Source of the DNA: Candidatus Stahliibacteriota bacterium
GTDB taxonomy: Bacteria; Hydrothermota; Tepidihabitantia; B3-TA06
DNA length: 64,000 nucleotides
Reading direction: 5' to 3'
Assembly (NCBI GenBank): GCA_004375895.1
Contig: SOJW01000020.1
Location: 1,170 to 65,169 of the forward strand
Of this stretch, positions 10,859-64,000 are shown one piece after another. The position numbers and the translations under genes were made by a program. The number at the start of each line of letters is the position of its first letter. Positions within the stretch are counted from its first letter, which is position 1. The notes under the pieces were generated by a model. That model saw only the letters and a list, made by a program, of their open reading frames with translations. It searched no databases and had not been told where the DNA came from.

Positions 10859-11353
10859 TCATTCCTCACCCTCAACCCAAGCCCTCCATAGCCAGGGATA
10901 ATCATCAACCTTTTTCACCAGGCCTTTTCTGACTGGATTGGCACAGATGTATTCGACCTTGCTTTCGGCATGTTCATAGGAACGCAGGATGCGGTCAAAG
11001 TATTCCTTCTGCCACACCTTACCTTCCCTGCCTAACGCTCTATTGATACTGCGGGCTGAAGCTCCTTTTATCCCCTGCATAATCTCTGCTAGGCCGTAGG
11101 TGACGCCTTGATCATCCTTCAATGGAGTAATAATCATATGGACATGGTCAGGCATAACGACAACACCGTGAAGAAAAAACTTTTTCCCGTGGTCGTGCAG
11201 GCAGTGTTTAATAACCAGATGCCGAACTGATTCGGGAAGTATCCAGCGTTTGAAAGTTGAAAAGGTTACAAAAAGGGATTTCCCTTCTCTCTGCAGATGG
11301 GGCAGCTTCCGGCAGTAGCTTTCTTTAGCAGGTTTTGCAGACGGTCGTTTCAT
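10859..11353 (-). CDS. REP-associated tyrosine transposase (IS200/IS605 Y1 HUH family, RAYT-like)
   Basis: HUH motif MPDHVHMII; catalytic-Tyr helix VEYICANPVRKGL; 164 aa; no TnpB partner. Confidence 0.8.
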   Translation of the reverse strand: MKRPSAKPAKESYCRKLPHLQREGKSLFVTFSTFKRWILPESVRHLVIKHCLHDHGKKFFLHGVVVMPDHVHMIITPLKDDQGVTYGLAEIMQGIKGASARSINRALGREGKVWQKEYFDRILRSYEHAESKVEYICANPVRKGLVKKVDDYPWLWRAWVEGEE

Positions 11354-16710: not shown

Positions 16711-17558
16711 TATTTCTTCCCCTTCTCCGATTTTGGTGTGTTACGGGTGTTACGGGTGTTACGGGTACGGGCGGGGTCCCCCCGCGAAGGCTTCGCCTTC
16801 GCGGGGGGTTCAACCATCCGGTGGGGTACCTTTCCGTGGAAGATCGCCTCCATCTGGGTCCCGTATAACCGCTGGAAATGCTCCTCATCCCAGATCTCGG
16901 AGGGACAAGCGTGCAGATGCACACTCTTCGCCACGCAGGCCACATCGTCAACGAAACTCGGCACCACCACAAGATCGTGGCTTGCCACCAGTATGGTGAG
17001 GGAAAGTTCCTCCTTCAACTCGCGGATAAGGGAATAGAAGCGGTCCTTTGCCTCAACGTCCGCGCCTGAGGTGGGTTCGTCGAGCAGGATAAGCTTCGGC
17101 TCACCAACAAGCGCACGGGCGATGGCCACGCGCTGCTTCTGCCCGCCGGATAGTGCCCCTACCGGACGGATGGCCACATCCCTAAGCCCCACGCGAGCAA
17201 GCATAGTAAGTGCGATCTCGCGGTCGTGCCTGCCCGCTCGTCTTATGAGACCTAAAGCCGGGTACCGTCCCATGAGCACCACATCCAGGGCACTCACAGG
17301 GAAGCGCCAGTCAACCACGCTCTCCTGGGGAACGTAACCTATCCTGGCGCGCTTGAGATCATAGTAACGCACCCTTCCCTGGGTAGGCTTGATAAGGCCT
17401 GCTATCACCTTGAGAAGCGTTGTCTTCCCGCCCCCGTTCGGGCCTATGAGCGCCGTAGATGAGCCCGCCGTTATCTGGATGTTCACATCATGAAGAGCCG
17501 TGAGCTCTTGAAAGCGTACGCTGACGTCCTCAAGGCTAACCAGGATTTTGGAACTCAC
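16710..17558 (-). CDS. Metal ABC transporter ATP-binding protein (ZnuC/TroB-type) with repeat-encoded C-terminal extension
   Basis: Walker A GPNGGGKTT, signature LSGGQKQR, Walker B LILLDEP; tail EPPAKAKPSRGDPARTRNTRNTRNTPKSEKGKK is encoded by the hairpin + GTGTTACGG array. Confidence 0.85.
   Translation of the reverse strand: MSSKILVSLEDVSVRFQELTALHDVNIQITAGSSTALIGPNGGGKTTLLKVIAGLIKPTQGRVRYYDLKRARIGYVPQESVVDWRFPVSALDVVLMGRYPALGLIRRAGRHDREIALTMLARVGLRDVAIRPVGALSGGQKQRVAIARALVGEPKLILLDEPTSGADVEAKDRFYSLIRELKEELSLTILVASHDLVVVPSFVDDVACVAKSVHLHACPSEIWDEEHFQRLYGTQMEAIFHGKVPHRMVEPPAKAKPSRGDPARTRNTRNTRNTPKSEKGKK
16736..16808 (+). repeat. GTGTTACGG array + GC hairpin element, copy 1
   Basis: gtgttacgg x3 + gtacggg, then ccccccgcgaaggcttcgccttcgcgggggg; lies inside the znuC-like 3' end. 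Confidence 0.85.
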
Positions 17559-36686: not shown

Positions 36687-38183
36687 TTAATTTGCGCTCC
36701 TTATTGTGAAGGTCAAGGCATTACCTTCGTGCTCCATACCTATCAGCAAGGCCTTCATCTCAAACGCGTCTAAAAACGGAAAGAGCTTTTCCTCAACGTT
36801 CGCCGGGGTAAAGCCTGCGGTGCGGTCGGCGGCGTAGATCAGGTACTCCTTTAAGGCTTCCCTGAACAGCGGCCAGTTGAGGCAGGCAACGGGTTCGGTT
36901 ATTCCTGCCGCTTCAAGATAGCCTGCGAACTCCTCCGAGCCGTCAAGGGTTAGACCGGCAGAGTACGCGTCAAGCAACCAGGGGACAAGCGCTGAGTCCG
37001 AGGTAACGGTAAGGTAGGAGTTATTAAAAAGATAGGTTATCGGCGGCAGATCCTCGCCCAGATCGAGCATGGTGTAGGCAACCTCGCCGTGAGTCAGGGT
37101 GGTGTCCCAGGCTGCGGGGAAGAACCAGGGTGCGAGTGCAGTCCAGCTCTCGAACGAACGCTCCGAGCCTGCCTCCACAGAAACCAGCCAGCGAGCCGGG
37201 GCATACCATCTATCTACATCCCAGCCCTGCATGATAAACATGGCTTCGTCCTTAAGGTCGACAGCTATCCGGGCAAACTCCTTTTCTATATCGAGATTAC
37301 CCAGAACCTCTAGCGCTCCCTCCTCTGCAGAAAGCTTGCCTGCTTCCTTCCAGACCCTGTAGGGATTGACACCGGCAAGGCTTATGAAGAGCGCGGCGTC
37401 TGCAGGTATCTTTGAGTAATCTTCAGGAGGCTTTGCATTGGCGATGAGGCCGCCCAGGACGCCTGAGGGTTTATCCATCTGGATTATTGCTTCGATTCCG
37501 TTCTCGCCTTCCTGGATAATCCATCTTGCTTCATCGAAGATCAAGTATTTACCGTGCTTACGCAAGAGCCCGTAGGCCAGCGGCTCAATGCCTCTACCGA
37601 TTGGGAAGGCTTTCTCTTCCTTCAGGTCTTCGGAGGAGGCGATCGCAAGACCCTTAAGCAGAAGCTTTTCCGAGGAGGCATACCAGAAGTAGTCTCCGGC
37701 AAAGAATGCCGCGGTGCCGCCCGTGAAAACTGTGTAGGGGATGCCTTGTGAGGACTTCTCATCGCCTTTAGCGATAATACTGCGCCACATCGCCTTTACC
37801 TTCCAGCTAGGCTGGGTGATGAGAAGGAAGCGCTTCTCGCCGTAGCTTGCGTAGATGAAGCGTGCACCAAGAACGTCCCAGAATCTGCCCTTGGTCTGTT
37901 CCTGAACCTTACTCACTTTCTCAAGGTTTGAGAAGTCTTTGTCTATCTCGTGCTTGCGGGCCAGGTGTCCTATTTTCGATGACTTGTAGAGTTTGCCGGC
38001 AGCTGTAAGATCGGCAGTCATATAGCTTTCCGCGCCCTTGGGAAGGAGCTCTTCCAGCACACCTACCTCGCGTTCTAGACCCGGGGTATCGGTCATCACC
38101 GCATAGGCGATCCCAGCTCCTATCACAAGCACTCCCAGACCTATCCCCACACCGATTAGAATTCTTTTAAGCTTTTTATTCAT
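36687..38183 (-). CDS. Membrane-anchored hypothetical protein (last gene of the A2M operon)
   Basis: N-terminal TM KRILIGVGIGLGVLVIGAGIAYAV; 4-nt overlap with the upstream gene. Confidence 0.6.
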   Translation of the reverse strand: MNKKLKRILIGVGIGLGVLVIGAGIAYAVMTDTPGLEREVGVLEELLPKGAESYMTADLTAAGKLYKSSKIGHLARKHEIDKDFSNLEKVSKVQEQTKGRFWDVLGARFIYASYGEKRFLLITQPSWKVKAMWRSIIAKGDEKSSQGIPYTVFTGGTAAFFAGDYFWYASSEKLLLKGLAIASSEDLKEEKAFPIGRGIEPLAYGLLRKHGKYLIFDEARWIIQEGENGIEAIIQMDKPSGVLGGLIANAKPPEDYSKIPADAALFISLAGVNPYRVWKEAGKLSAEEGALEVLGNLDIEKEFARIAVDLKDEAMFIMQGWDVDRWYAPARWLVSVEAGSERSFESWTALAPWFFPAAWDTTLTHGEVAYTMLDLGEDLPPITYLFNNSYLTVTSDSALVPWLLDAYSAGLTLDGSEEFAGYLEAAGITEPVACLNWPLFREALKEYLIYAADRTAGFTPANVEEKLFPFLDAFEMKALLIGMEHEGNALTFTIRSAN

Positions 38184-38818
38184 AAGGCCTCCTCTTTGAT
38201 TAGTCGGACTAAACTGTCTAGTCCCATTCCATCTATTTTTTCCTGAGTCAACCGAGCTGCTGCCAGATAGCCGAGCTTTAAGTCCAACGTATCCTTGCTT
38301 TTAAGCAATGTCTCAATCCTTTCTTTCTCTTTAGGCAAATCTTTCAAACTTACATCCTCTGCTAGCCTCCTCGCCTGCCCGGAACATATCACCGCCAGCC
38401 CCTCGTTGAGCCATAAAGGGACCTCATATGGCTCAAGCACAAGGTGCACGTACTCGTGAACCACTACCTCCTCAAGCACCCCGCGACGTTCAAGAACAGC
38501 CAGGGGCTGAACGATGAGCTCCCCGTTTCTTACCGCCGCACCATGCCAGATAGAACATCCGGTCCAGGCAGCAAAATCCCCACTCGAAGGCGCCACCCGT
38601 AACACACCACCCCGTAACACCCGTAACACACCATTCTCCCACCCTACCCCCATCGAATGATCTTCAAAGTAATCATCAACTACCCTTTCTGAGGTTCTCA
38701 GAACCTCCACCCACCTAGAAATCTCCTGTCGGTTAACTTCTTCCCCCGATGTAATGATTACCCATCTATCCATGGGCACCACCGCGCTCCAGAGAATCGC
38801 CAAGAAAAGCCTTACCAT
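38180..38818 (-). CDS. Peptidase-MA-like metalloprotein (HExxH...NEGLA)
   Basis: VVVHEYVHLVLEP...WLNEGLAV; carries an in-frame GTGTTACGG-element insert (GWENGVLRVLRGGVLRVAPSSG). Confidence 0.6.
   Translation of the reverse strand: MVRLFLAILWSAVVPMDRWVIITSGEEVNRQEISRWVEVLRTSERVVDDYFEDHSMGVGWENGVLRVLRGGVLRVAPSSGDFAAWTGCSIWHGAAVRNGELIVQPLAVLERRGVLEEVVVHEYVHLVLEPYEVPLWLNEGLAVICSGQARRLAEDVSLKDLPKEKERIETLLKSKDTLDLKLGYLAAARLTQEKIDGMGLDSLVRLIKEEAL
38575..38640 (-). repeat. GTGTTACGG element copy 2, inside a coding sequence
   Basis: Minus strand gagaatggtgtgttacgggtgttacggggtggtgtgttacgggtggcgccttcgagtgggg. Confidence 0.8.
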
Positions 38819-50298: not shown

Positions 50299-50317
50299 TT
50301 AGCTCTCCTTTTTAATA

Positions 50318-51245: not shown

Positions 51246-51270
51246 TCACCTCATTGTGAAGGAGTGAAGT

Positions 51271-51915: not shown

Positions 51916-51917
51916 GC

Positions 51918-52355
51918 ATGCTAGAGAACACCCCTATTCCTATCCTTAAGCTGAAGGATTTCCTGCTCGTCTCAATCCAGATCGACCTGCACGACCGGAT
52001 GGCCCAGCAGCTTCAGCAAGATATCCTCGAGCGCATCTCCCAGACTCAGGCCAAGGGCGTACTCATTGACATCTCAGCCCTTGAGATGGTTGATTCCTTC
52101 ATGGGGCGCACCCTTGCGGACACAGCCAGGATGGCCTCTACACTTGATGCGGAGATCGTGATCGTGGGTATGCAGCCCGCGGTTGCCATCACATTGGTGG
52201 AGTTGGGGCTTCCCTTAGGTGGGGTAAGAACAGCAATAAACCTTGACGAAGGCTACGAACTCCTGCAGGAGAGCCTGAAGGAGAAGGCCTCAGAGAAGCA
52301 AGGTATCGAGGAGGAAAGCGAAGAAGAGGAAGCGGATGATAGTGGTTCCGATTAA
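51918..52355 (+). CDS. rsbS: RsbS-like STAS protein
   Basis: IPILKLKDFLLVSIQIDLHD...VLIDISALEMVDS...IVGMQPAVAITL. Confidence 0.8.
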   Translation: MLENTPIPILKLKDFLLVSIQIDLHDRMAQQLQQDILERISQTQAKGVLIDISALEMVDSFMGRTLADTARMASTLDAEIVIVGMQPAVAITLVELGLPLGGVRTAINLDEGYELLQESLKEKASEKQGIEEESEEEEADDSGSD

Positions 52356-52728
52356 AGAGGAATCTGACATCGTCCACGCACGCGCCGCAGCAAAAGATGT
52401 GGCTCGAAAGTTAGGTTTCGGGCTTGTTGATCAGACCCGGATCAGCACCGCGGTATCTGAGCTGGCCCGAAACATCTACCTCTACGCAGGCGAAGGAGAA
52501 GTTCACATAGAAGAACACCCCGATTCTCACCGCGGGATTCGCGTAACCTTCATCGATAATGGTCCGGGAATAGATGATGTGGAACTGGCTCTAAAGGACG
52601 GCTGGTCCTCAACGAAAGCCATGGGGAAAGGATTGCCCGGTGCAAAAAGGCTTACTGACCATATGGAGATCAACACCCAACCAGGTCATGGAACCACCGT
52701 CACAATAGAGAAATGGCTGGCGCAATGA
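52336..52728 (+). CDS. rsbT: RsbT-like serine kinase (HATPase_c)
   Basis: ISTAVSELARNIYLYAGEGEV...FIDNGPGI...GKGLPGAKRL...GHGTTV. Confidence 0.8.
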   Translation: MIVVPIKEESDIVHARAAAKDVARKLGFGLVDQTRISTAVSELARNIYLYAGEGEVHIEEHPDSHRGIRVTFIDNGPGIDDVELALKDGWSSTKAMGKGLPGAKRLTDHMEINTQPGHGTTVTIEKWLAQ

Positions 52729-53061
52729 ACGATACAGCTAAACTAAGGATAGAAAAACTTAAGGGATAACCCCAAGATTGACGGCGACGGTTTTTATAAA
52801 CTGTTGGACTTAGTAATTAGCTATAATCCCCCAACCAGGCTTATCTATCTCTCTGGACCAACACTCATTAGAATCTCAAACATATACCCTTCATCTCTCC
52901 ATAATCGAAGCCCACAGTTCTATCGCTTGTATCCAGACAAATTTGCAATTTGAATTGAGCGACACCCTCGTGCACAGAGGCAGGTGAGGCTGTTGTCCAT
53001 CTTTCCCTCACCCTATCACGATACCCTGGTAACAATCTCTTGGCGCACAGACTATTGCCTC

Positions 53062-53089
53062 TTGACATACAGGAATAGACGGATAGAGT
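53062..53089 (+). promoter_or_regulatory. Sigma-70 promoter, leaderless-type, of the TonB-dependent receptor gene
   Basis: TTGACA-16 nt-TAGAGT-5 nt-ATG 53095. Confidence 0.55.
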
Positions 53090-53094
53090 TCGCT

Positions 53095-55437
53095 ATGCGC
53101 AAGGGAATAATATGGGCAGTTCTTTTTCTCACGGAGTTCCTTTTTGCCGCCGAGACCGGAATGGTTGCAGGGTTCGTGCGCGAAGCGGAGTCAGGCGAGT
53201 TCCTGAGCTACGTCAACGTTTATCTCGCGGATAAAAGCATGGGCACCGCCACCAACAAGCAGGGCTACTACGTGCTTTCACGTGTACCCGAGGGCAAGCA
53301 CACCTTGATCGTTTCGATGATAGGTTATCGGGAGGAACGCTTAGAGATAGACGTCAGAGCCGATAAGAGGCTGCGCCGCGACTTCTACCTTAAGCCCCAG
53401 CCCCTGGGTATGGAACCGGTCGAGGTAACAGCGGAGCGTGCGCGTTTCGAGCACGAGGTGGACGTGGGGGTGAAGCGTATGGACTTTACCGAGATGAGGC
53501 AGATACCCGGTTTCGTGGAGCAGGATTTGTTTCGCTCCCTTGCGATGCTGCCCGGGGTCGTTTCAGTCTCCGATTTCACCTCCGCCCTCTATATTCGCGG
53601 GGGAACCATGGATCAGAACCTCATCCTTCTCGACGGGGTAACCGTGTACAATCCATATCACCTTATGGGATTCTTTTCCACTTTCATTCTCGAATCCCTC
53701 AAAGGGGCGGAATTATATACCGGCGGTTACCCGGCCCGGTACGGCGGAGCGATTTCCTCGGTGCTTGACGTGGAGATGAAGGCGGGCAACAGCGAACGGA
53801 TAGCCGGTTATGGAGAGATCGGACTTTTGACCTCCAAGCTTGTCGTAGAGGGGCCGCTTCCCTGGGGTGCCAAAGGTTCCTGGCTCGCGGCAGGACGAAG
53901 GACTTACATCGATGCCATCACCTGGACGCTGGATAAGATATTCAATCCCGATTTCTCCATCTATCTTCCTTACCACTTCTACGATCTTCAGGCCAAGGTG
54001 AACTGGGACGCAAGTGAGCGCTCACGATTCACCTTATCCGGGTTCTTCGGCGACGACGTGCTTAGCTTTAAGGAAGAAGAAGAGGTGGACTTGGACTTCC
54101 GGTGGGGAAACGGAACCCTTGGTTTGAGGTGGCGTTATCTGTTCACGCCTCAGCTTTTCTCGCTTCTGGGGTTCAACGCCACACGCTACCGGCTTGATAC
54201 CGAGGTGATTGAAAGAGACGAACCTGATTTTGAGGAGACGAGTAAGAAAATAGAGGAATATACCTACGGGTTGGAAAGCGGTGTCGGCGAGCTGGGATTG
54301 CAATGGGGGCTGACCTGGTTCAGCGGTCCTGGACATACGGTGGAATTTGGAGTGGAGAGCAAGGTTATAGAGACCATGAACTTCATGGAAGAGGGTTGGG
54401 CGAGATACGATAAGGATAAACGGAATCAACCGGATACCTCCTGGGATACGGTCCGGGTCAACCAGCGCGATACGTTCTGGCTTGCCGCCGTCTATCTGCA
54501 GGACAAGTGGGAGCCTGGTCCGTTCTGGGTCATTGAGACCGGTGTGCGTGGAGAGTATTTCTCGAATGGGAACTACTGGCGTGCCTCGCCCCGATTGGGC
54601 ATCAAGCGTCGCCTTACCGCCGACTGGGCAATAAAGGCCGGGGCAGGATTATACTATCAGTACTTATACGTTCCTTATCCCCGTGACGAGATGATGCTCA
54701 AGATCCCCATTCAGTTCTTCCAGCAATGGATGGGAGCGGCTGAACGTTATCCTCCTCTGAAGTCTACCCTATTTACTTTGGGAACCGAGCATCTGTTTCC
54801 CAAAGACATGAGTGCCTCTGTCGAATTCTACTACAAGGATCTGCGCAACCTGCGGGAGGCCGACCTGATGGGTGGAGAAGGTCCGACTACGGACACGGCG
54901 TCCATAACTCTCGGACAGGGTTACTCCTACGGCGCAGAACTGCTCCTCAAGCGCGGCTACTCCTGGGTCGGCTACTCCTACTCGGTCACACGCTACCGGT
55001 TCGGCGATGAGGATTGGTTCTTTCCCGTGCACGATTCCCGTCACAACCTCAATCTGTCCTTTGCATTGCCCCTGGGCAAGAAGGGTTGGACCCTGACCTC
55101 GGCGTGGGTGTTTTCCTCCGGGTTCCCGTTCACCGCCCAGATCGGCTGGTATCAGCATGTTAATGAAGAGGGAGAGATTGACTGGATGCCTATCTCGGGC
55201 AGACGGGGCGAGGTTCGTTATCCGCCCTATCACAGACTTGATGCAGGCTTCACGAAATCCTTCAGGCTGTTTAAACGCTTTGACGCCGAGTTCTACATCC
55301 AGGTGCTCAACGTTTACGCCAGGCGCAACGTACTCTTCTACGACTACGAGATCGACGAAAACGGAGTCACCCAAAGAGAAGCAGTACCGATGCTGCCCGT
55401 ACCCATACCCAGCTTTGGAATAAGGGCCAGGTTGTGA
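53095..55437 (+). CDS. TonB-dependent receptor with CarboxypepD_reg-like N-domain
   Basis: Signal peptide; GFVREAESGEFLSYVNVYL...YYVLSRVPEGKHTL; plug LPGV...IRGG; C-terminal beta-barrel ending in aromatic-rich strands. Confidence 0.85.
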   Translation: MRKGIIWAVLFLTEFLFAAETGMVAGFVREAESGEFLSYVNVYLADKSMGTATNKQGYYVLSRVPEGKHTLIVSMIGYREERLEIDVRADKRLRRDFYLKPQPLGMEPVEVTAERARFEHEVDVGVKRMDFTEMRQIPGFVEQDLFRSLAMLPGVVSVSDFTSALYIRGGTMDQNLILLDGVTVYNPYHLMGFFSTFILESLKGAELYTGGYPARYGGAISSVLDVEMKAGNSERIAGYGEIGLLTSKLVVEGPLPWGAKGSWLAAGRRTYIDAITWTLDKIFNPDFSIYLPYHFYDLQAKVNWDASERSRFTLSGFFGDDVLSFKEEEEVDLDFRWGNGTLGLRWRYLFTPQLFSLLGFNATRYRLDTEVIERDEPDFEETSKKIEEYTYGLESGVGELGLQWGLTWFSGPGHTVEFGVESKVIETMNFMEEGWARYDKDKRNQPDTSWDTVRVNQRDTFWLAAVYLQDKWEPGPFWVIETGVRGEYFSNGNYWRASPRLGIKRRLTADWAIKAGAGLYYQYLYVPYPRDEMMLKIPIQFFQQWMGAAERYPPLKSTLFTLGTEHLFPKDMSASVEFYYKDLRNLREADLMGGEGPTTDTASITLGQGYSYGAELLLKRGYSWVGYSYSVTRYRFGDEDWFFPVHDSRHNLNLSFALPLGKKGWTLTSAWVFSSGFPFTAQIGWYQHVNEEGEIDWMPISGRRGEVRYPPYHRLDAGFTKSFRLFKRFDAEFYIQVLNVYARRNVLFYDYEIDENGVTQREAVPMLPVPIPSFGIRARL

Positions 55438-56291
55438 TGAGATTCAGGATAATACCCGCAATCATCCTTCTTTTATCCGTAATCGCCTGCGACACCACTC
55501 CGGAAACCTACGAGGGTGAACCTAACATCTACGCGGTGCTCACTACCGACTCCTCGTTCGCGTGCATCATGGTTGGAAAAACCACTTCAATAGACGATAC
55601 CCTGACGCTGGAGCCTGATACCATCATGGATACCTTCTGGCGTGACGATACGTTTGAAGTCTGGCCGGAGATAGTTTTCCCGTGGAACGGGGTCAGCGGG
55701 GCTGAAGTCAGTCTCAAACAGGGGGGACACAGATATGTTCTCCTCGAGGATCCCGACTCGGCAGGCTATTACGGTTCCGATTCCATTCAGTTCTCAGCGA
55801 GGAAAACCTGGGAGCTTGAGGTTACCTATCCTTCGGGAGAGGAGATCGAGGCGCAGACCACTATTCCTGGAAACTTCGAGATTACGTCACCTTTGGTCGA
55901 TACCCTTTCGGATACCGACGTCCTGGAGTGGACTCCCTCAGCTCACGCTGCCGGATATCTTATAGAGTTGCTCCAGTGGTTGTCGTGGGAAGATGAGGAA
56001 GAGGATACACTGGTTGTTGATTCTTCTTTTGACTGTCTCATGCTTGTTCAAGCCGATACAACTTCCTTGCCCATGCAGGAGTTGGAGTTATTCGATTATC
56101 TTTGGGCTTGGGCTGACTCTTTGATTATCTTCGTATCTGCTCTGGACACAAACGCTTATGACTACCGGTATTATGGAGAAGATCGCTGGGACCCTGACAT
56201 CCGCGTGGAAGACTACATGCACATCGAAGGTGCTTGGGGTGTGTTCGGCTCCCAGACGGTGGCCTGTTCTCAGCGCTACGTCCTCCGGTGA
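55434..56291 (+). CDS. DUF4249-like lipoprotein (TonB-receptor partner)
   Basis: Lipobox LLLSVIAC; 4-nt overlap with the receptor gene. Confidence 0.55.
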   Translation: MMRFRIIPAIILLLSVIACDTTPETYEGEPNIYAVLTTDSSFACIMVGKTTSIDDTLTLEPDTIMDTFWRDDTFEVWPEIVFPWNGVSGAEVSLKQGGHRYVLLEDPDSAGYYGSDSIQFSARKTWELEVTYPSGEEIEAQTTIPGNFEITSPLVDTLSDTDVLEWTPSAHAAGYLIELLQWLSWEDEEEDTLVVDSSFDCLMLVQADTTSLPMQELELFDYLWAWADSLIIFVSALDTNAYDYRYYGEDRWDPDIRVEDYMHIEGAWGVFGSQTVACSQRYVLR

Positions 56292-56434
56292 TATAAATCC
56301 CGGTCTGAGGGCAGACACCCGACCCTCTGAGGCTCATCCGCTCGGTATTATTCACAAAGACCTACGTGTAGAGAAAGGCCGGGGCTCAGGCCCCGACCTG
56401 GTTTGAGCTGAACCCCTTCTAGGGGAAATTTATG

Positions 56435-56476
56435 CCCGTGTTACGGGTTACGGGTTACGGTGTTACGGGTTACGGG
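56435..56476 (+). repeat. GTTACGG/GTGTTACGG array, copy 3
   Basis: cccgtgttacgggttacgggttacggtgttacgggttacggg; includes the stop codon of the GDH paralogue. Confidence 0.85.
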
Positions 56477-57738
56477 AAGATACCTCGTCTCTTGTAGATT
56501 CTCTCCAGTCTGGTAAGTGCCTCGATGCGTGCCGCGGTGCACCAGTCGGTCTTGAACTCCGCTGCGCGGTCGCGCACCCGGTGGTAAGCGTCCTTCATCT
56601 TGTTCTGCAGTTTGCGGTCTACCTCTTCAAGTTCCCACAGCTCGCTTCGTTTGTTCTGCAGCCACTCGAAGTAGCTCACGATCACGCTGCCGGAGTTGCA
56701 CAGGATGTCTGGGAGCACCTCAATTCCCCTCTCCTTCAAGATCTTTGAGCCATCTCGATCGCAGGGGCAGTCGGCTCCCTCGACCACCAACTTGACGTTG
56801 AGCTTGGGTGCGGTCTGGGCGGTGATCTGATACTCCAACGCGGCTGGGATGAATATATCGGCTTTTGTAGCAAGGAAGGCCTCGTGATCTATCGGTTTTG
56901 CATTGGGGTAGCCTGCTATGCGTCCGTTCTCCTTGTCGTATGTCAAAAGGTCGGAGGGATCGATTCCACGAGGGTTATAGATCGGGCCGGAGGTATCCTC
57001 GACCGCAACGAGTTTTGCTCCTTTTTGATTGAGCAAGATGGAGGTCCAAACACCTACACTTCCGAATCCTTGAACCGTGTAGGCAGCACCCTCAAGATCG
57101 AAGCGGTGACCAGCTGCCCATTCCTCGATGGCAAAGACAAGCCCCTGGCCCGCTGCTTTGTCATGCCCGACGCTGCCGCCCAGGTGGATGGGTTTGCCGG
57201 TGACCACGTGTGTTTTGGCCTGCCTTTTTTCCGGAGGCATGGTAGAGAGGTAGGTATCCAGTATCCAGGCCATAGTCTGGGGGTTTGTGTTCACGTCCGA
57301 GGTGAGTATGTCGTACTCCGCTCCGATGTTCGAGCCAAGGGAGTAGGTAAAGCGGCGGGTGATTCGTTCCACATCAGAGAAGTTGTAGTCAGAGGGGTTG
57401 AACTGGACCCCGCCTGCAGCCCCGCCGAATGGGATACCGGCGATAGCCGCCTTACACGTCATCACAGTAGCAAGCGCGCGCATCTCTCCCAGATCAACCC
57501 AGGGATGAAAGCGAAGTCCGCCCGAGTAGGGACCCATCACGTTGTTGTGCTGCACACGATAGCCAGTGAACATCTCCACCCGACCGTTTGACATCTTAAC
57601 CGGGAAGTTGACGGTAATCTCGTTGGTAGTCTTGGCCAGGATTTTGAGAACCTCACGGTCTAGCTTCATCAAATCCGCGGCATTATGGAGCCCCTCAAGA
57701 ACGTCGCCGTAGAAACCGGTTTCCTTCTTCATCATCAC
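56470..57738 (-). CDS. Glutamate-dehydrogenase-family paralogue lacking the catalytic lysine
   Basis: Full-length Glu/Leu/Phe/Val-DH fold, but IPFGGAAGGVQFNP (K->A) and GPYSGGLR (K->S); GFGSVG Rossmann motif intact. Confidence 0.85.
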   Translation of the reverse strand: MMMKKETGFYGDVLEGLHNAADLMKLDREVLKILAKTTNEITVNFPVKMSNGRVEMFTGYRVQHNNVMGPYSGGLRFHPWVDLGEMRALATVMTCKAAIAGIPFGGAAGGVQFNPSDYNFSDVERITRRFTYSLGSNIGAEYDILTSDVNTNPQTMAWILDTYLSTMPPEKRQAKTHVVTGKPIHLGGSVGHDKAAGQGLVFAIEEWAAGHRFDLEGAAYTVQGFGSVGVWTSILLNQKGAKLVAVEDTSGPIYNPRGIDPSDLLTYDKENGRIAGYPNAKPIDHEAFLATKADIFIPAALEYQITAQTAPKLNVKLVVEGADCPCDRDGSKILKERGIEVLPDILCNSGSVIVSYFEWLQNKRSELWELEEVDRKLQNKMKDAYHRVRDRAAEFKTDWCTAARIEALTRLERIYKRRGIFP

Positions 57739-57742
57739 TCCT

Positions 57743-57845
57743 TACGGTTTGCTGTTACCGTGTGTTACGTGTGTTACGGGTGTTATTTCCTTGTGATTCA
57801 AGCTGATTATGAGAATCCCCCGAAGGGGGGCGGGTGTTACGGGGC
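57743..57845 (+). repeat. GTGTTACGG composite element, copy 4 (between the two GDH genes)
   Basis: gtgtgttacgggtgttatttcctt...tgagaatcccccgaaggggggcgggtgttacgggg. Confidence 0.85.
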
Positions 57846-57848
57846 TGC

Positions 57849-59111
57849 TCATGGGAAGATCCCACGTTCCTTGTATACCGTTTCAAGACGTGAGAGAGCG
57901 ACGATGTAGGCCGCGGTTCGCCAGTCTATGTTGTGCTCTCGAGCCGTATCGCGAACGCGTTCGTAGCCTGCAACGATCTTGCGGTGCAGTTTTCCATCCA
58001 CCTCTTCAAGATCCCAGAACTCGCTGCGCTTGTTCTGCAGCCACTCGAAGTAGCTTACGATCACGCCGCCGGAGTTGCAAAGGACGTCTGGAAGAAGATC
58101 GGTTCCCTTTTCATGAAGAATCTTATCACCGTCCGGATCGGTGGGACCGTTTGCGCCTTCGGCAACCAGCTTCACGTTAAGCATGGGAGCGGTCTTTAGT
58201 GTGATCTGGTTCTCAAGAGCCGCCGGGATGAAGATGTCGGCCTTGGTCGCAAGGAAGGTTTCGTGATCAATAGGTTTGGCCTTTGCGTAGCCGCCAATCA
58301 ATCCCTTATTCTTTTGCGTATACTCATAAAGGTCGTCGGGATCGATCCCCTTTGGATTGGCAATAGCCCCGCTTACGTCCTCGACAGCAACGAGCTTTGA
58401 ACCGTGTGGTTTGAGGAGACGGGACGCCCAGGAACCCACGTTCCCGAACCCCTGAACGAAGTATGCCGCACCCTCAAGATCAAAGTTGGTATCTTTGGCC
58501 CACTGCTCGATGGTAAAGACCACACCCTGGCCAGTAGCCTTGTTGCGGCCTATGCTCCCACCCGACTCGACAGGCTTGCCGGTAACTACATGGACTGCCG
58601 CCTGACGCTCGTGGGCAGGCATGGTGGAGAGGTAGGTATCCAGGATCCAGGCCATTATCTGAGGGTTGGTGTTTACGTCCGGTGCAGGGATGTCGAACTC
58701 AGGCCCTATGTTCGAGCCCAGGGCAAAGGTGAATCGGCGGGTGATGTGCTCAAGCTCGCTTGCCGAGTACTTGAATGGATCGATCTGGATGCCGCCTTTT
58801 GCTCCACCGAACGGGAGGTTCACTATGGCCGATTTCCAGGTCATCCAGGTAGCCAGCGCCCGAACCTCATCAATGTCCACGGCAGGGTGATAGCGCAGCC
58901 CCCCTTTGTAAGGGCCAAGCGCGTTGTTGTGCTGCACCCGGTAACCGGTGAACATCTCGATGTGGCCGTTGTCCATCTTAACCGGAAAGTTGACGATTAC
59001 CTCATTGTTGGTTCTAGCAAGTATCTTGCGGATCTCAGGATCCAGATGCATCAAATCAGCAGCCTTGTTAAACTGCTTGGTTACGTTATCGTAAACGCTC
59101 GCCTTTTTCAT
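57849..59111 (-). CDS. gdhA: Glutamate dehydrogenase
   Basis: GPYKGGLRYH, active-site signature LPFGGAKGGIQIDP, PAPDVNT, GFGNVG. Confidence 0.92.
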   Translation of the reverse strand: MKKASVYDNVTKQFNKAADLMHLDPEIRKILARTNNEVIVNFPVKMDNGHIEMFTGYRVQHNNALGPYKGGLRYHPAVDIDEVRALATWMTWKSAIVNLPFGGAKGGIQIDPFKYSASELEHITRRFTFALGSNIGPEFDIPAPDVNTNPQIMAWILDTYLSTMPAHERQAAVHVVTGKPVESGGSIGRNKATGQGVVFTIEQWAKDTNFDLEGAAYFVQGFGNVGSWASRLLKPHGSKLVAVEDVSGAIANPKGIDPDDLYEYTQKNKGLIGGYAKAKPIDHETFLATKADIFIPAALENQITLKTAPMLNVKLVAEGANGPTDPDGDKILHEKGTDLLPDVLCNSGGVIVSYFEWLQNKRSEFWDLEEVDGKLHRKIVAGYERVRDTAREHNIDWRTAAYIVALSRLETVYKERGIFP

Positions 59112-59123
59112 CTCTTTAGCCTG

Positions 59124-59426
59124 CTAACAATACTCGTCGCACTGCCAAACACCGCCTGCAGGCTTGGGAAAGACGCAGTGATGACGGTTCTCGCAGTTGC
59201 GGCACAGTCCTTTGAACTCCACCTCGTCGGCGGCCTCCGGCTTGGCAACCCTTGGGACTACCTTAGTCTTTGGACCCTCGTAGCCATCGAACTCGTCGCA
59301 GTGCATTATTGGACGAGCGGGGTCACGAGGAAAGGTGCAGGTTGCAGCGTTCTTGCAGGTAGAGCAAAGCCCCCGATACTTCGGCTTAACAGCCTTTTTG
59401 GTCTCTTGAACTGTTGATGTCTGCAT
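59124..59426 (-). CDS. Small protein with two Cys4 modules
   Basis: GLCSTCKNAATCTFPRD...HCDEF and GLCRNCENRHHCVFPKP...QCDEY; AAGGAGG SD; first gene after the sigma-54 promoter. Confidence 0.7.
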   Translation of the reverse strand: MQTSTVQETKKAVKPKYRGLCSTCKNAATCTFPRDPARPIMHCDEFDGYEGPKTKVVPRVAKPEAADEVEFKGLCRNCENRHHCVFPKPAGGVWQCDEYC

Positions 59427-59502
59427 GAAATCCTCCTTTGCGTGTGATTTCTTTTCACGAGCTTTTCCAGGAGCCGTTCTTGTGAGCGACTCACCCCCTA
59501 GC

Positions 59503-59520
59503 TTGCAATATTCGTGCCAG
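59503..59520 (-). promoter_or_regulatory. Sigma-54 (-24/-12) promoter
   Basis: Minus strand CTGGCACGAATATTGCA matches YTGGCACG-N4-TTGCW exactly. Confidence 0.85.
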
Positions 59521-59641
59521 GCTAGCCTAAATGTGAGTTACGATGAGGATGGCTTAGTTAAGTCAAGCTAGATTAAATAGTTAGAAGTGGATGGATGGGC
59601 TTTGGGATGCAGCTTCAGTCTCCCCCTGGATTAAAATTGGC

Positions 59642-59677
59642 GGGGAGATGTGCCCCGGTGGGGAGAAACGCCCCACC
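59642..59677 (-). terminator. Tandem hairpins after the response-regulator gene
   Basis: Minus strand GGTGGGGcgtttctCCCCACC, then GGGGcacatctCCCC, then gccaatttt. Confidence 0.55.
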
Positions 59678-59680
59678 TTC

Positions 59681-61018
59681 TTACTGGGATTCTTCCATCT
59701 TCCTGAGTTTTTCGCGCAAGGTCTTTCGGTCGATCCCCAGTATTTCTGCGGCCTTTGTTTTGTTGCCGTTAACGCTTGCCAACACGTTGCGTATGTGTTC
59801 TGCCTCCACCTCGGCCAATGTCCTTTCAAATCCCTGAGCCTTTGGAGAAAAGCGCATAAGTGCCGGCAAATCCTTAACGTCTATCGTATCTTGCTCCACC
59901 ATAACCACCAGCCGCTGGATTACGTTCTCAAGCTCCCGAACGTTACCGGGCCAGTGGTAGTTCTTTAGAACCTCAAGCGCTTCGTCAGAGAAGCTAGGTG
60001 TGGGTTTGCCAAGCTCCTCTGCAAACTTTTCCGTAAAATGTCGAAGCATCAGGAGTATGTCGTCATCCCTCTCCCGCAGCGGTGGAAGATCAATGGTAAT
60101 GACGTTGAGGCGGTAGTAAAGGTCCTCCCTGAAGCTTTGCTTTTTGACAAGGGCCTGTAGGTCTTTATTTGTTGCGGCAATAATCCTCACATCAACCTTT
60201 TCGGATTTTCGTGAGCCGAGCATGAAGATCTCCTTGTCCTGCAGCACCCGCAAGAGCTTAACCTGCATGGCCGGACTTGTTTCACTGATCTCGTCAAGGA
60301 AGATGGTGCCGCCGTCTGCAGTTTGAAAGAAACCTGCCCTGGTCGTTGCCGCGCCGGTAAACGCACCCTTAACATACCCGAAGAGCTCAGATTCCAGAAG
60401 TTCATGCGGTATAGCCCCGCAGTTGATAGGCACGAAGGGTGGTGAGGCACGCGGGCTTGAGTAGTGGATAGCCCTGGCCACAAGCTCCTTGCCAGTGCCG
60501 CTTTCCCCTGTGATGAGCACCGTAGCCGGGGTTGACGCCGCCTTATGGATGGCGCTGAAGACCTCGCGCATGACCTTTGAGGAGCCGATTATCCCGTGAG
60601 GCGACGGGATATCCTCGGATACCTGCGTGGCCCTGCGCATACGTAGTTTGTCAAGCGCCTTTCTTACCGCCAAGAAAAGCTCCTCGTCGGTAAAGGGCTT
60701 TGAAAGATACTCCTCGGCCCCTTGCTTTACCGCCTGAACAGCACCCTCTACGGTGGCATATCCTGTAATCATCATCACCTCGGTGTCCGCAAGGTTCTCC
60801 CGCACGTATCGCACCAGATCCAGGCCACTTGCCCCGGGCATCTTTAAATCAGTTATCACCAGATCAACCTGGGTGTCTTCAAGCAACCTTAAGGCTTCCG
60901 GCACGTTTTGCGCGGTAAAGACCTGATAACCCTGTGATGTCAGATTACGATCGAGGACCTCAAGGGTATCGGTCGCGTCGTCTACCACCAGGATGCGTTC
61001 CCTTTCAGGTGACGTCAT
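59681..61018 (-). CDS. Sigma-54-dependent response regulator (NtrC family)
   Basis: REC (VVDD...DLKMPG), AAA+ (GESGTGKE, GAFTGA, ESELFGY), C-terminal Fis-type HTH. Confidence 0.92.
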   Translation of the reverse strand: MTSPERERILVVDDATDTLEVLDRNLTSQGYQVFTAQNVPEALRLLEDTQVDLVITDLKMPGASGLDLVRYVRENLADTEVMMITGYATVEGAVQAVKQGAEEYLSKPFTDEELFLAVRKALDKLRMRRATQVSEDIPSPHGIIGSSKVMREVFSAIHKAASTPATVLITGESGTGKELVARAIHYSSPRASPPFVPINCGAIPHELLESELFGYVKGAFTGAATTRAGFFQTADGGTIFLDEISETSPAMQVKLLRVLQDKEIFMLGSRKSEKVDVRIIAATNKDLQALVKKQSFREDLYYRLNVITIDLPPLRERDDDILLMLRHFTEKFAEELGKPTPSFSDEALEVLKNYHWPGNVRELENVIQRLVVMVEQDTIDVKDLPALMRFSPKAQGFERTLAEVEAEHIRNVLASVNGNKTKAAEILGIDRKTLREKLRKMEESQ

Positions 61019-62853
61019 TTGGTCTCCTTGTTAGTTTCATCGCGTCCATCAGGACGCGTAGGTGTGTTACGGGTGTTATTTCCTTTTGAACGGAGCGTAT
61101 GCTCCGAGTAATTGTGAGAATGCCCCGAAGGGGTACGGGTAAGGGGTAGTTTTACGGTGAAGCGTGATCCCTTGCCTTTCTTGCTTTCAACCTTGATTGT
61201 CCCCCCGTGTGAGGTGACGATCCCGTGAACCACGGCCAACCCAAGACCGGTTCCTTGCCCGACCTCCTTGGTGGTAAAGAATGGCAGGAATATCTGTCTT
61301 TGAACCTCCTCGTCCATACCCGTACCCGTATCCTCCACGATCAGAATAACCTCCTCCTCTGTTGCTCTTGTTCTTATGGTGAGCCTTCCTCCGCCAGACA
61401 TTGCCTGGAGTCCATTTACGACCAGATTGACAAGTACCTGGTTCAGCTGTGACGGGTCGGCGGTGATCTCAGCCAGCCCCTCGGTAAGATCGCGCACCAC
61501 CTCGATCCCCTCCTTTTCGCAGCGGCTCTCAAGGAAGTAAAGCCCCTCTTCCACTATCCGGTTAAGATTGACCAGTGTTTTATGGGCGGGCATCTGACGG
61601 GCGAATATGAGAAGCTTCTTTACCACCTCCCTGGCGTGAAGTGCTGCGTTTTCGATCCTCCTCATGTCCTTGCGCGCCTGTTCAGGCAACCCATCGGACT
61701 TGCGGGCAAGCTGGGCAAATCCAAGGATAGCGCCCAGGGGTTCGTTAAGCTCGTGTGCCACGCCTGCTGCAAGCTGGCCCAGAGTAGCCAGGCGATCCGC
61801 GTGACGAAGCTGTTCCTCAAGCTTGGTCCGTTCGGCTTCCCACTGCCTGCGTTCGATTATAAGCACGAGCTGAGCGGCCACCGCGTCCAGAAGGCTCTGC
61901 TCCTCTGCGATGAAAAGCTCCACCTCAAGCTCAGGCTTCTCCTCTGAGTAGAACACCTCCACCACGCCTCGTTTTACTCCATCGACTACGATATCCGCGG
62001 CCAGCCGGTAGCGGGTTTCGGTACATCTCGGCGGGCAGCAGTAATCCTTATCATCCAGTATTATCCTAGCCGAGGCTATATCCGGGTATCGCATGGCTGG
62101 TGGCAACAAATCGGCTATGCCGCCAAGGATCTTCTCGAGAGATATGCCCGGTTCCTCAACCAGTCGGGCTATCCCGTAAAGGCAGTAGAGTTCCTTGACG
62201 CGCTCACGCAGTTTGGTCTGCGCTCTGCGGCCTGCCATTGCTATCCCTATGGTCTGGGCAACGCCCTCGTAGAACTCTATCTCTTCAACGGTAAAGAAGT
62301 TCTTCTCTCTGCTTTTTAATTGAATCAGCCCGTTATTGTTATCGTCTATTACAAAAGGGATCATTGCGAGTGAGGAGTAATCACCGGTAGACGCCAGATC
62401 AGTAGGGGTTTCCTCGCCCGTTTGGGAACTCAGCGCCTCCTTCAGGTTGCCAGTCCAGAAGCTGCCGGTTTTGGTGAAGTAAGGGTAGGAGCTGTCAAAG
62501 TTACCACCTAACAGTATCTTACAGGTTTGTTCCAGGCTTGAACCATCCGGCAGGCATGGGAGCGCCAGCCCCTTCTCATCCTGTATATAGGGGAGTTTCT
62601 CGAACTGAAAGCGCTCATTGGGTTCCATCCTGGCTTCCCACCGGTAGTGCAGCTTGCCGTCGGTGATGCGCAGCTCAACCGCATCGCATCCGGAGAAGCG
62701 GATGAGCATCCTTGAGACCTCGCGCTGGAACTCAATCCTCGGCGCGCCGCGGTTGGCGAACTGCAGTATCCTCCGCGAGAGTGCCGAGAAATCGTGAGAT
62801 CTCTTGCTTGCCCTCGCTTTGGTGTCAACCGACCTTGAGCTTTTGCCTGTCAT
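61015..62853 (-). CDS. Cytoplasmic GAF-containing sensor histidine kinase with repeat-encoded tail
   Basis: H-box HELNEPLGAI, N/G boxes, no TM segment; last ~45 aa (...NNTRNTPTRPDGRDETNKETK) are encoded by GTGTTACGG element copy 5; ATGA overlap with the regulator gene. Confidence 0.88.
   Translation of the reverse strand: MTGKSSRSVDTKARASKRSHDFSALSRRILQFANRGAPRIEFQREVSRMLIRFSGCDAVELRITDGKLHYRWEARMEPNERFQFEKLPYIQDEKGLALPCLPDGSSLEQTCKILLGGNFDSSYPYFTKTGSFWTGNLKEALSSQTGEETPTDLASTGDYSSLAMIPFVIDDNNNGLIQLKSREKNFFTVEEIEFYEGVAQTIGIAMAGRRAQTKLRERVKELYCLYGIARLVEEPGISLEKILGGIADLLPPAMRYPDIASARIILDDKDYCCPPRCTETRYRLAADIVVDGVKRGVVEVFYSEEKPELEVELFIAEEQSLLDAVAAQLVLIIERRQWEAERTKLEEQLRHADRLATLGQLAAGVAHELNEPLGAILGFAQLARKSDGLPEQARKDMRRIENAALHAREVVKKLLIFARQMPAHKTLVNLNRIVEEGLYFLESRCEKEGIEVVRDLTEGLAEITADPSQLNQVLVNLVVNGLQAMSGGGRLTIRTRATEEEVILIVEDTGTGMDEEVQRQIFLPFFTTKEVGQGTGLGLAVVHGIVTSHGGTIKVESKKGKGSRFTVKLPLTRTPSGHSHNYSEHTLRSKGNNTRNTPTRPDGRDETNKETK
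61061..61150 (+). repeat. GTGTTACGG composite element, copy 5
   Basis: gtgtgttacgggtgttatttcctt...tgagaatgccccgaaggggtacgggtaagggg. Confidence 0.85.
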
Positions 62854-62864
62854 AGGTATAAACT

Positions 62865-62892
62865 ATACTAATAATTTAGCCTCAAATGTCAA
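62865..62892 (-). promoter_or_regulatory. Putative promoter of the kinase/regulator operon
   Basis: Minus strand TTGACA-16 nt-TAGTAT, 11 nt before ATG 62853, no SD. Confidence 0.45.
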
Positions 62893-62963
62893 GCGATGTT
62901 TGGACACCCCAACCCCTTGACAATAGCCACCTCGGGGATGAACTATTTGCATAAGGAGGAGAT

Positions 62964-63267
62964 ATGTTACGTAAGACGAGTATTTTGATACTACTTCTTG
63001 CCCTCGGCTTAAGTGCTGAGCTTTGGGTGAACGCCATCCGCTACCCTGCAGGCAACGTGCGGGAGAAGAACTTATTCTGGACAGGTTGAAATCTACGATG
63101 CTTCGGGCCGAGAGGTTTACAGCCGCTCTATTCAACCTGGCACCCGCAAACTTCTCTGTGCAACGGATGATATTCCGGCAGGACTTTACTTCTATCGGTT
63201 CAGGTAGGGGGATCGAATCATAGCCGCGAAGCCGGTGATTCTGAGGTTGTTTTCACCCGTAAGCTAG
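62964..63267 (+). pseudogene. Decayed secreted protein: signal peptide + T9SS-type C-terminal sorting domain
   Basis: AAGGAGG + MLRKTSILILLLALGLSA...; after a frameshift QVEIYDASGREVYSRSIQPGTRKLL...DIPAGLYFYRFR*GDRIIAAKPVIL with an internal TAG. Confidence 0.5.
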
Positions 63268-63274
63268 TGGATGA

Positions 63275-63901
63275 TTAACTTTCCGTGTGTCCAGGCAGGA
63301 GCGGCACGAACTGGCACTCGGAGAGCTCGCGTAAACGCAATCCTCCTCGAGTTTTGGTTATCAGGTTGATACGACCTTTCAACGGGATAACCATCCGGCT
63401 GCCCGGCTTGAGTTGATCCACCAGGTTAGACGGCACCTCCTCGGTCCCAGCGCTCACGATGATTGCGTCGTAAGGGGCATGCTCTGACCATCCCAGCATC
63501 CCGTCACCTGCACGAAGATGTGCTGTTCCACACCCGGCACGAACGAGCCTCTCACTTACCTCCTTTAGTAGAGAAAGATTGCGTTCGATGCTGTAGACCT
63601 CGGCGACCAGTTTGGTCAAGAGCGCCGTCTGAAAGCCCGAACCTGTCCCGATCTCAAGCACGCGGTCTCGAGAAGATAATTGGAGAGCGGTAAGCATCGC
63701 TGCCACCGTGGATGGGGCGGAGATCGTTTGAGAGCCGCCTATGGGAAGGGCTGCGTCAGTATAGGCTTTATGTTCCAGCCCCGGCGGCACGAAGAGGTGA
63801 CGAGGTACGCTCACGAACGCTTTGAGTATCCTCTCATCTCCTATGCCCTTGCTGCGCAGGGCGTGGATCAACCTTTGAAGATCTCGTTCGTTGAATTGCA
63901 T
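63275..63901 (-). CDS. pcm: Protein-L-isoaspartate O-methyltransferase
   Basis: VPRHLFVP, GGSQTISAPSTVA, VLEIGTGSGFQTALL. Confidence 0.9.
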   Translation of the reverse strand: MQFNERDLQRLIHALRSKGIGDERILKAFVSVPRHLFVPPGLEHKAYTDAALPIGGSQTISAPSTVAAMLTALQLSSRDRVLEIGTGSGFQTALLTKLVAEVYSIERNLSLLKEVSERLVRAGCGTAHLRAGDGMLGWSEHAPYDAIIVSAGTEEVPSNLVDQLKPGSRMVIPLKGRINLITKTRGGLRLRELSECQFVPLLPGHTES

Positions 63902-63906
63902 CTTCC

Positions 63907-63935
63907 ATTATAGCGTATGCTTGAGTGTGGGTCAA
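63907..63935 (-). promoter_or_regulatory. Sigma-70 promoter, leaderless-type, of pcm
   Basis: Minus strand TTGACC-17 nt-TATAAT-5 nt-ATG 63901. Confidence 0.6.
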
Positions 63936-64000
63936 CACACTCGGTCTGGCAAGAAAACCCTGTGTTCCTACACCAAGGGATGGTTACCAGGACGCCAGGG

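Follow-up and report, generated by a model that had tools for sequence, protein, structure and literature searches.

The stretch of DNA analysed here (64,000 nucleotides, called the window) carries, between two glutamate dehydrogenase (GDH) genes, a short tandem array joined to a hairpin. The question raised by this locus is what kind of repeat it represents, and how such a sequence comes to stand at several unrelated places. An earlier note, made from the letters of the window, had proposed five copies of one composite element, array plus hairpin, belonging to a dispersed family of no recognised kind. The last point is upheld by database and literature searches: a full-text literature search for the unit sequence gave no match, the only Rfam match in the whole window at the gathering score was a tRNA-Thr, and no Rfam match was obtained for positions 56300-61300 even at E <= 1. 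The genomes concerned are those of WOR-3/Stahlbacteria, a group that to our knowledge is almost uncultured and little explored in its genome dynamics.

Arrays of a 9-nt unit at five sites of the window

Arrays of the 9-nt unit GTGTTACGG or its 7-nt form GTTACGG were found at all five sites where the earlier note had placed them (Table 1). The gene contexts given there were also recovered, namely the tail of a znuC-like ORF (copy 1), the interior of an HExxH peptidase-like gene (copy 2), the stop codon of GDH2 (copy 3), the GDH1-GDH2 spacer (copy 4) and the tail of a histidine kinase (copy 5), with all genes flanking the five copies on the minus strand. For array calls in the window Tandem Repeats Finder was used, and it detected arrays at 16738-16766 (9 nt x 3.2), 38611-38629, 56440-56476 (7 nt x 5.1) and 57753-57785. 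The similarity among the sites holds against chance: GTTACGG is present 18 times in the window as compared with 4.6 expected, a count that none of 100 shuffles reached, and the 15-mer GTGTTACGGGTGTTA, with up to two mismatches allowed, is present six times as compared with 0.07 expected. Since 14 of the 18 GTTACGG copies fall in the five sites, the isolated copies are at chance level.

Table 1. Arrays, modules and hairpins at the five sites of the window.
Feature	Position	Strand	Description
Copy 1 array	16736..16772	+	GG(GTGTTACGG)x3 then GTACGGG; 3 x 9-nt units at 16738-16766
Copy 2 array	38594..38632	-	In frame in HExxH peptidase-like gene 38180..38818(-); encodes GVLRVLRGGVLRV
Copy 3 array	56438..56476	+	7- and 8/9-nt units: GTGTTACGG GTTACGG GTTACGG TGTTACGG GTTACGG G
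Copy 4 left units	57760..57779	+	GTGTGTTACG TGTGTTACGG, in GDH1-GDH2 spacer
Copy 4 module, short subtype, 54 nt	57780..57833	+	GTGTTATTTCCTTGTGATTCAAGCTGATTATGAGAAT + hairpin CCCCC-GAA-GGGGG (57817-57829) + GCGG
Copy 4 right unit	57834..57844	+	GTGTTACGGGG; ends 4 nt before GDH1 TGA stop (57849-57851)
Copy 5 left unit	61062..61072	+	GTGTGTTACGG; array at 61064-61072
Copy 5 module, main subtype, 66 nt	61073..61138	+	GTGTTATTTCCTTTTGAA + hairpin 1 + AGTAATTGTGAGAATG + hairpin 2 + TACGG
Copy 5 hairpin 1	61091-61106		CGGAGC-GTAT-GCTCCG
Copy 5 hairpin 2	61123-61133		CCCC-GAA-GGGG

Copy 1 lies within the last 40 codons of the 282-aa znuC-like ORF, where the minus-strand reading is TRNTRNTRNT; the tail of this ORF is ...PSRGDPARTRNTRNTRNTPKSEKGKK, its stop overlaps the GTG start of znuB, and the array is located upstream of that start, 26 nt away. 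The alignment with solved Zn/Mn ABC ATPases, which are 240-251 aa long, covers only residues 6-236 of the ORF. The last unit of copy 3 includes the TAA stop of GDH2 (56470-56472). The two GDH paralogues are arranged in tandem at 56470-59111 with a DNA identity of about 69%, both end in GIFP*, and the GDH2 end, CCG TAA, doubles as the first unit of array copy 3. The peptidase-like gene of copy 2 belongs to a conserved cluster, 38180-45330(-), that also includes an alpha-2-macroglobulin-like protein (1534-aa ORF), a transpeptidase and a SpoIID-like protein.

Short tandem repeats of other kinds are also present in the window, at 8749-8792 (21 nt x 2.1), 3617-3652 (11 nt x 3.3) and 51198-51236 (GAAAAG x 6.5). 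A non-coding stretch at 11860-12620, rich in hairpins and G-runs, includes two G-quadruplex-type motifs and a 45-nt repeat (11979-12023 and 12406-12450, 71% identical). A G-quadruplex as the common feature of the five copies was discarded, the pattern G3N1-7 x4 being found in window copy 1 only.

A hairpin module in register with the arrays

The module, TTTCCTT...TGAGAAT-CCCCGAAGGGG, is present in the window at copies 4 and 5 only. Copies 1-3 consist of arrays alone, and thus the proposal of one composite element in five copies was not borne out. Neither was a module hairpin detected at copies 1 and 2: copy 2 has no hairpin, and the 14-bp GC hairpin by copy 1 (16778-16808, in the tail of the znuC-like ORF), CCCCCCGCGAAGGC-TTC-GCCTTCGCGGGGGG, is of another repeat type. 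Hairpins like GGGGTCCCCGCGAAGG... were also observed at other loci (L093, L122, L141 and L004/L079), and therefore the hairpin at 16778-16808 represents a second repeat family. The segments described as common to copies 4 and 5, GTGTGTTACGGGTGTTATTTCCTT ... TGAGAAT(C/G)CCCCGAAGGGG, are indeed shared. A module profile built from 36 copies, window copy 5 being among them and copy 4 not, matched the window at exactly two places, 61075-61138 (E 3e-21) and 57782-57833 (E 7e-7). At copy 5 the module is read through by the histidine-kinase ORF, giving the tail TRTPSGHSHNYSEHTLRSKGNNTRNT..., and the stop of this ORF overlaps the ATG of a sigma-54 response regulator.

Across 41 distinct copies, the module starts with GTGTTAT.TCCTT and ends with (G/A)CCCC-GNA-GGGG-TACGG. 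In these 41 copies it replaces one unit of the array in register, with junctions GTGTTA|T.TCCTT... and ...GGGGTA|CGG, and its orientation is always that of the flanking array. Measured from GTGTTAT through TACGG, 29 of the 41 copies have a length of 66 nt and the others one of 54, 69, 78 or 93 nt; the length is divisible by 3 in all copies except one (40/41). Modules also occur head to tail, up to three in L142, and an identical 64-mer is found at several unrelated sites.

Hairpin 2 is invariant apart from the middle base of its loop (CCCC-GNA-GGGG). The stems of hairpin 1 differ by subfamily (CGGAGC/GCTCCG, TGGAGC/GCTCCA, GGGGC/GCCCC, CCAGGAA/TTCCTGG and GTGC/GCAC) with GNNA or GNA loops, and the 54-nt subtype, including window copy 4, is devoid of this left hairpin. 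Among the 36 copies, 95.6% of the cells of hairpin 1 are paired, three of the six pairs show changes on both sides, and the observed covariation score was reached by none of 500 shuffles. Folding of the whole module was not clearly better than that of shuffled sequences (z = -0.8 to -2.2).

Some modules carry additional sequence. In the module at L144:1190-1265 an inverted unit of 12 nt, CCGTAACACACC, is inserted after hairpin 1 and before TAATTATGAGAAT, the module length still being a multiple of 3. The modules of the WOR-3 MAG V_C2H3O2Na_Bin.72 (L071:7731-7821 and L104; truncated in L010) include a nested 39-nt palindromic insert, GACCTATGGGATGAAGGCTCATCCCAAGGGTC, which also adjoins an array in L080.

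Distribution among genomes and metagenomes

When one genome per prokaryotic species was scanned with the query GTGTTACGGGTGTTAYKKSYK, at least 110 matching stretches were obtained, at least 70 of which came from seven MAGs labelled candidate division WOR-3 or Candidatus Stahlbacteria. Among the other matches listed, three came from an unlabelled MAG, seven Nostoc stretches were a GVTGVG coding repeat, and the remainder were single matches in unrelated taxa. Among the matches listed, the family thus appears restricted to the WOR-3/Stahlbacteria lineage, a distribution that they suggest short of proof. A metagenome scan with the right end of the module yielded 39 stretches with 41 modules; many of these loci are mutually orthologous, so that the independent sites are fewer than the copies. 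Genes in the fetched loci were called as ORFs.

Two other origins were considered and set aside. A phage origin was rejected, as the 16 matches in viral contigs are collagen-like GVTGVTG coding repeats. An assembly artefact was rejected because the same sites recur in independent assemblies and in metagenomes. The window belongs to a Candidatus Stahlbacteria (WOR-3) genome, and the protein that carries copy 2 is annotated as being from a Candidatus Stahlbacteria bacterium. Positions 47849-64000 of the window match part of a GCA_030588455.1 contig at 100% identity. The window spans two contig ends of that assembly (JAUUXQ010000012 and ...011), with the joint at about 37021-37040 and no repeat at the joint.

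Rapid gain and loss between close relatives

The contig L022, from Ca. Stahlbacteria CSMAG_1024, aligns with window positions 56373-62853 at 86-96% identity and differs from the window at each of the three copies in this region. At the copy 4 site only GTGTGTTACGGGTGTTACGGGG is present and the module is absent from the GDH1-GDH2 spacer; the site lacks 63 nt of the window sequence (the module core and two units) between flanks that are 100% identical. At the copy 5 site there is neither module nor unit, the kinase ending 14 residues after KLPL, and at copy 3 there are three units as compared with five in the window.

The same pattern was observed among the fetched loci, where orthologous sites carry 2-7 units and 0-3 modules. 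At one orthologous site compared in seven contigs, the module is absent from one contig, single in two (of another subtype in one of these), present twice in three and three times in one. In L121 a 66-nt module is located in place of one 9-nt unit of L129, with flanks 97-99% identical. At one orthologous site the modules are 98-100% identical and the flanks about 82%, and in one MAG the array at the copy-2 site is perfect between flanks of just 66% identity. The suggestion that array length and the use of 7- and 9-nt units reflect slippage is supported by these comparisons, in that orthologous sites differ by whole units; from such whole-unit differences, we infer that the unit number changes by slippage.

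Arrays and modules in reading frames

Among 175 arrays in 855 kb, 64 are located in ORFs that continue without a stop for 60 codons or more to either side, the value for random segments being 55%. The arrays in ORFs translate as TRN, VTG, CYG, PVT or VLR repeats. Of the unit spacings inside such long ORFs, 103 of 108 (95%) are multiples of 3, as compared with 157 of 224 (70%) outside (Fisher p = 2.6e-8), indicating that the ORFs are real and that frame-breaking variants have been removed. In 26 aligned peptidase homologues the array, of 0-5 VLR-type repeats, lies directly before the conserved RVAPSSGDF; distant homologues have no array and show a native x[VI]RV at that point.

Five of the six frames are open for arrays and two to four of the six for modules. 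When module-encoded peptides were searched in 5.8 billion proteins, they were found only in 12 short hypothetical proteins, and therefore most modules, like those of the window, lie between genes or in the tails of ORFs. The idea that modules are commonly located inside large proteins was accordingly dropped. Multiple-of-3 lengths together with open frames explain how the pieces persist where genes are translationally coupled and in the linkers of proteins.

A RAYT gene with its own flanking repeats

The window includes a gene for a REP-associated tyrosine transposase (RAYT) at 10859..11353(-), encoding 164 aa, with a score of 105 bits against NF047646 (cut-off 80) and a match to PF01797. A perfect direct repeat of 94 nt stands on either side of it (10733-10826 and 11381-11474) and includes the GTAG-tagged hairpin GTAGGCT-CTCA-GCCTGCC as well as a second one, ATGTCATCCC-GCA-GGGATGACAT. 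The segment 10733-11474 is a REPtron-like unit; adjacent to it are a small membrane ORF of PEMT-like type and a methyltransferase, which are reordered in L173. A REPtron is a cognate RAYT gene flanked by its own repeat (PMC3733652), and by this criterion the RAYT of the window has a repeat of its own.

A RAYT homologue, 76% identical, is present in the array-bearing WOR-3 MAG Zod_Metabat.887. RAYT homologues are flanked by CCCTGAGAGGG-type hairpins, which are not dispersed, and not by units or modules, and the RAYT clade is 65-70% identical to proteins of Deltaproteobacteria and other phyla. No further RAYT/Y1 gene was found by tblastn with the window RAYT in about 850 kb of other element-bearing loci. 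A regular expression for the HUH motif gave no match in the ORFs of the loci, the expression being so strict that it misses the window RAYT too. The RAYT as the cognate enzyme of the GTGTTACGG family was rejected, its flanks being another repeat; some involvement of the RAYT with the family is possible.

Relation to known kinds of repeat

The family appears to be a variant of the small dispersed bacterial repeats, and the comparison of sequence features indicates that it lacks what defines REP, MITE and CRISPR. It resembles REP/REPIN-RAYT systems (PMC3116915, PMC3337134, PMC3733652) in being short, abundant, hairpin-bearing, non-autonomous and lineage-specific, in its location mostly at gene ends and operon junctions, and in the presence of a RAYT gene in the same genome; REPs inside genes have also been reported (PMC3733652). 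A REP is an imperfect palindrome of 20-40 nt, tagged at one of its ends by GTAG or CGTC (PMC3733652), and inverted REP pairs (REPIN) are the common form (PMC3116915). In contrast, no GTAG/CGTC tag was found on the module hairpins, CGGAGC-GNNA-GCTCCG being preceded by ...GAC and CCCC-GNA-GGGG by ...GAGAAT(G). The modules are embedded in 9-nt tandem arrays and are single or head to tail rather than in inverted pairs, the sole inverted pair being in L138, 1.3 kb apart around two PPIase-like ORFs. Unlike in a REPtron, the repeats flanking the window RAYT differ from units and modules. The terminal inverted repeats of MITEs were not found, the left end GTGTTAT.TCCTT and the right end GGGGTACGG (reverse complement CCGTACCCC) not being complementary, nor was any direct repeat, as expected of target-site duplication, detected at the junctions of the copies without flanking units (L138, L033, L130, L116 and L147). 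The family thus departs from REP in tag, REPtron and inverted pairs, and from MITE in inverted ends and duplication. CRISPR was rejected, as in the earlier note, the 7-9-nt units being head to tail with no spacers, as compared with 23-55-nt repeats and unique spacers of similar length in CRISPR.

Miniature, palindrome-associated elements derived from IS200/IS605 are closer in some respects. They share with the module the absence of inverted ends and target duplication, hairpins near the ends, and an apparently precise insertion beside a fixed short sequence containing TTA(C); IS608 inserts 3' of TTAC. The junctions GTGTTA|T... and ...GGGGTA|CGG fit such fixed-site insertion, and homology-guided copying fits equally. 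The similar subterminal hairpins of this type of element were not found, since the two module hairpins differ and the 54-nt subtype is without the left one. Unlike for these miniatures, no matching autonomous element or TnpA was found in the fetched loci and no strand bias was detected: the GC skew of the flanks in element orientation was 0.0036 +/- 0.0035, with 50% of the sites positive, on contigs without an assigned direction of replication.

STRR are short tandemly repeated repetitive heptamer arrays of heterocystous cyanobacteria, of unknown function. The present arrays are likewise dispersed tandem arrays of a short fixed unit in one lineage. Here, however, the unit is of 9 nt (7 nt in a minority), its sequence and host phylum are different, a hairpin module stands in register, and the arrays run in frame in genes; because unit length, sequence and host phylum differ, STRR is an analogy and not a matter of membership. 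Rickettsia palindromic elements (RPE) are 'selfish DNA in protein-coding genes', and like them the present family consists of small repeats tolerated in frame in ORFs, where they add peptide segments. Such in-frame insertion was found for the arrays (the peptidase and the frame constraint); for modules the peptide search gave only the 12 short hypothetical proteins, besides the ORF tails of the window. Unlike RPE (mentioned in PMC10969869 and PMC1779305), it is mainly 9-nt arrays that lie inside proteins, no long palindrome is present and the host group is another. As in simple-sequence-repeat contingency loci and minisatellites, the unit number differs between close relatives, as slippage predicts; unlike in contingency loci, one unit, GTGTTACGG, is shared by dozens of unrelated sites, and the within-ORF spacing by multiples of 3 means that the arrays do not switch genes on and off.

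Discussion

Beyond the earlier note, the analysis adds the apparent restriction to WOR-3/Stahlbacteria, the in-register module with lengths that are multiples of 3, the presence/absence polymorphism and the RAYT gene at 10859-11353. With moderate confidence we regard the sequences as a lineage-specific (Candidatus Stahlbacteria / WOR-3), non-coding and non-autonomous repeat family of two layers, which changes by slippage and by the copying of modules and is probably selfish or neutral. The first layer would be microsatellite-like arrays of the 9-nt GTGTTACGG, with a minor 7-nt form GTTACGG and point variants, at many sites per genome, whole units being won and lost through slipped-strand mispairing. 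The second would be the two-hairpin module of 54-93 nt, mostly 66 nt, in place of one unit; modules would be copied into arrays, and lost from them, with the arrays serving as landing pads or portable homology. Both layers would probably be selfish or neutral passengers. Their persistence at operon junctions, gene ends and protein linkers may be attributed to pieces that are multiples of 3 with mostly open frames, so that upstream ORFs read through them.

For the copying of modules we favour a process guided by homology or microhomology between arrays, by gene conversion or template switching. Alternatively, a Y1 HUH enzyme could act in trans, cleaving and joining single strands in a hairpin-dependent way. 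The arrays would provide homology between sites in the former case and a series of target sites in the latter. The module could not be linked to any transposase, terminal inverted repeats or target duplication, and about 855 kb contained no larger autonomous element with module ends as its borders.

A REP-like element moved on single-stranded DNA by a Y1 HUH transposase, either RAYT or IS200-type, is a doubtful explanation of the whole family. Such an enzyme would bind the module hairpins and cut and join at ...TA^CGG, and the units would be target sites together with the collapsed ends of excised modules, GTGTTA plus CGG making one unit. The RAYT of the window and its relative in Zod_Metabat.887 fit this explanation, as do a module without inverted ends or target duplication, its precise in-register insertion after GTGTTA with a similar GGGGTA at its own end, and hairpins having GNA/GNNA loops and compensatory changes. 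However, the RAYT and its homologues are flanked by GTAG-tagged or CCCTGAGAGGG hairpins and never by units or modules, their clade is close to proteins of other phyla, no Y1 gene was found in about 850 kb of other element-bearing loci, no orientation bias relative to the flanking GC skew was detected, and the short module subtype misses the left hairpin. A wider proposal, which we consider unlikely, is that an active process directed by sequence writes both units and modules into the DNA, through either a Y1 HUH enzyme at TA^CGG or templated synthesis from an abundant single-stranded copy. The arrays (GTGTTACGG)n would then be self-extending landing pads that convert unit-like native sequence and add in-frame peptide repeats. 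Hints in this direction are the native unit-like sites, the inverted unit of L144, the identity of one unit with two collapsed module ends, and perfect units within flanks only 66% identical.

Modules and arrays conserved above their flanks could mean selection for function instead of selfish spread. A cis-acting element under selection could work upstream of promoters, as an array bound by protein, or in the mRNA at operon junctions, as a stabiliser or as a C-rich stretch on which Rho loads. Such an element would agree with this conservation and with the location of window copies 1, 4 and 5 between co-directional genes. Moreover, at 13 of 158 sites, as compared with 3.5 expected, arrays end 0-15 nt upstream of strong promoter-like sites (TTGACA-N17-TAxxxT), next to the -35 box, the G-rich strand always being in the promoter sense (L004, L043, L079, L093, L119, L125, L128, L136, L144, L145 and L150). 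We nevertheless judge it distinctly unlikely for the family as a whole, given that the repeats stand in either orientation to genes, inside ORFs, after stops and before starts, vary in presence between close relatives whose flanks are otherwise identical, and fold not clearly better than shuffled sequence; no consensus promoter or terminator was detected at the window copies. A mobile promoter was rejected, TTGTGA-N17-AATAAT fitting one module subtype only and failing in the 54- and 69-nt subtypes. Several arrays are located at native unit-like sequence, VLRV in the peptidase and CCG TAA at the GDH2 stop, and so a part of the family may have grown in place; the same sites give hints of a homology-seeking process. 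That all arrays arose by slippage from chance unit-like sequence with no movement is very unlikely. The native x[VI]RV-RVAPSS of distant peptidase homologues at the site of the VLR array, the GDH2 end as the start of a unit, and an 'empty' site that reads GGTGGACGGGTGG where filled sites read GGGTGTTACGGGTGG speak for such local growth; against it, dozens of sites per genome share one 9-mer while lone GTTACGG is at chance level, unrelated sites hold identical 64-nt modules, and the relative has neither unit nor module at the copy 5 site. A multicopy gene for a small structured RNA, either an sRNA or a ribozyme, is highly improbable: two conserved hairpins, one of them with compensatory changes, and GNRA-like loops on the G-rich strand (hairpin 2 being UNCG on the other strand) would suit it, but Rfam is silent, the copies have no promoter or terminator of their own and lie in ORF tails in either orientation, and the folding z-scores are weak.

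These repeats represent a natural case of sequences designed, or filtered, for life in reading frames, and real proteins are lengthened by them in the znuC-like tail, the kinase tail and the peptidase linker. It is unusual for a bacterial repeat that a hairpin module stands in register with a 9-nt unit, and this poses the question of how a small element spreads with no inverted ends, target duplication or linked transposase; sequence-directed writing, if true, would be a mode of spread undescribed for bacterial repeats. The family provides a compact and readily recognised marker of one clade, and its quick change between close relatives means that it could serve strain typing.
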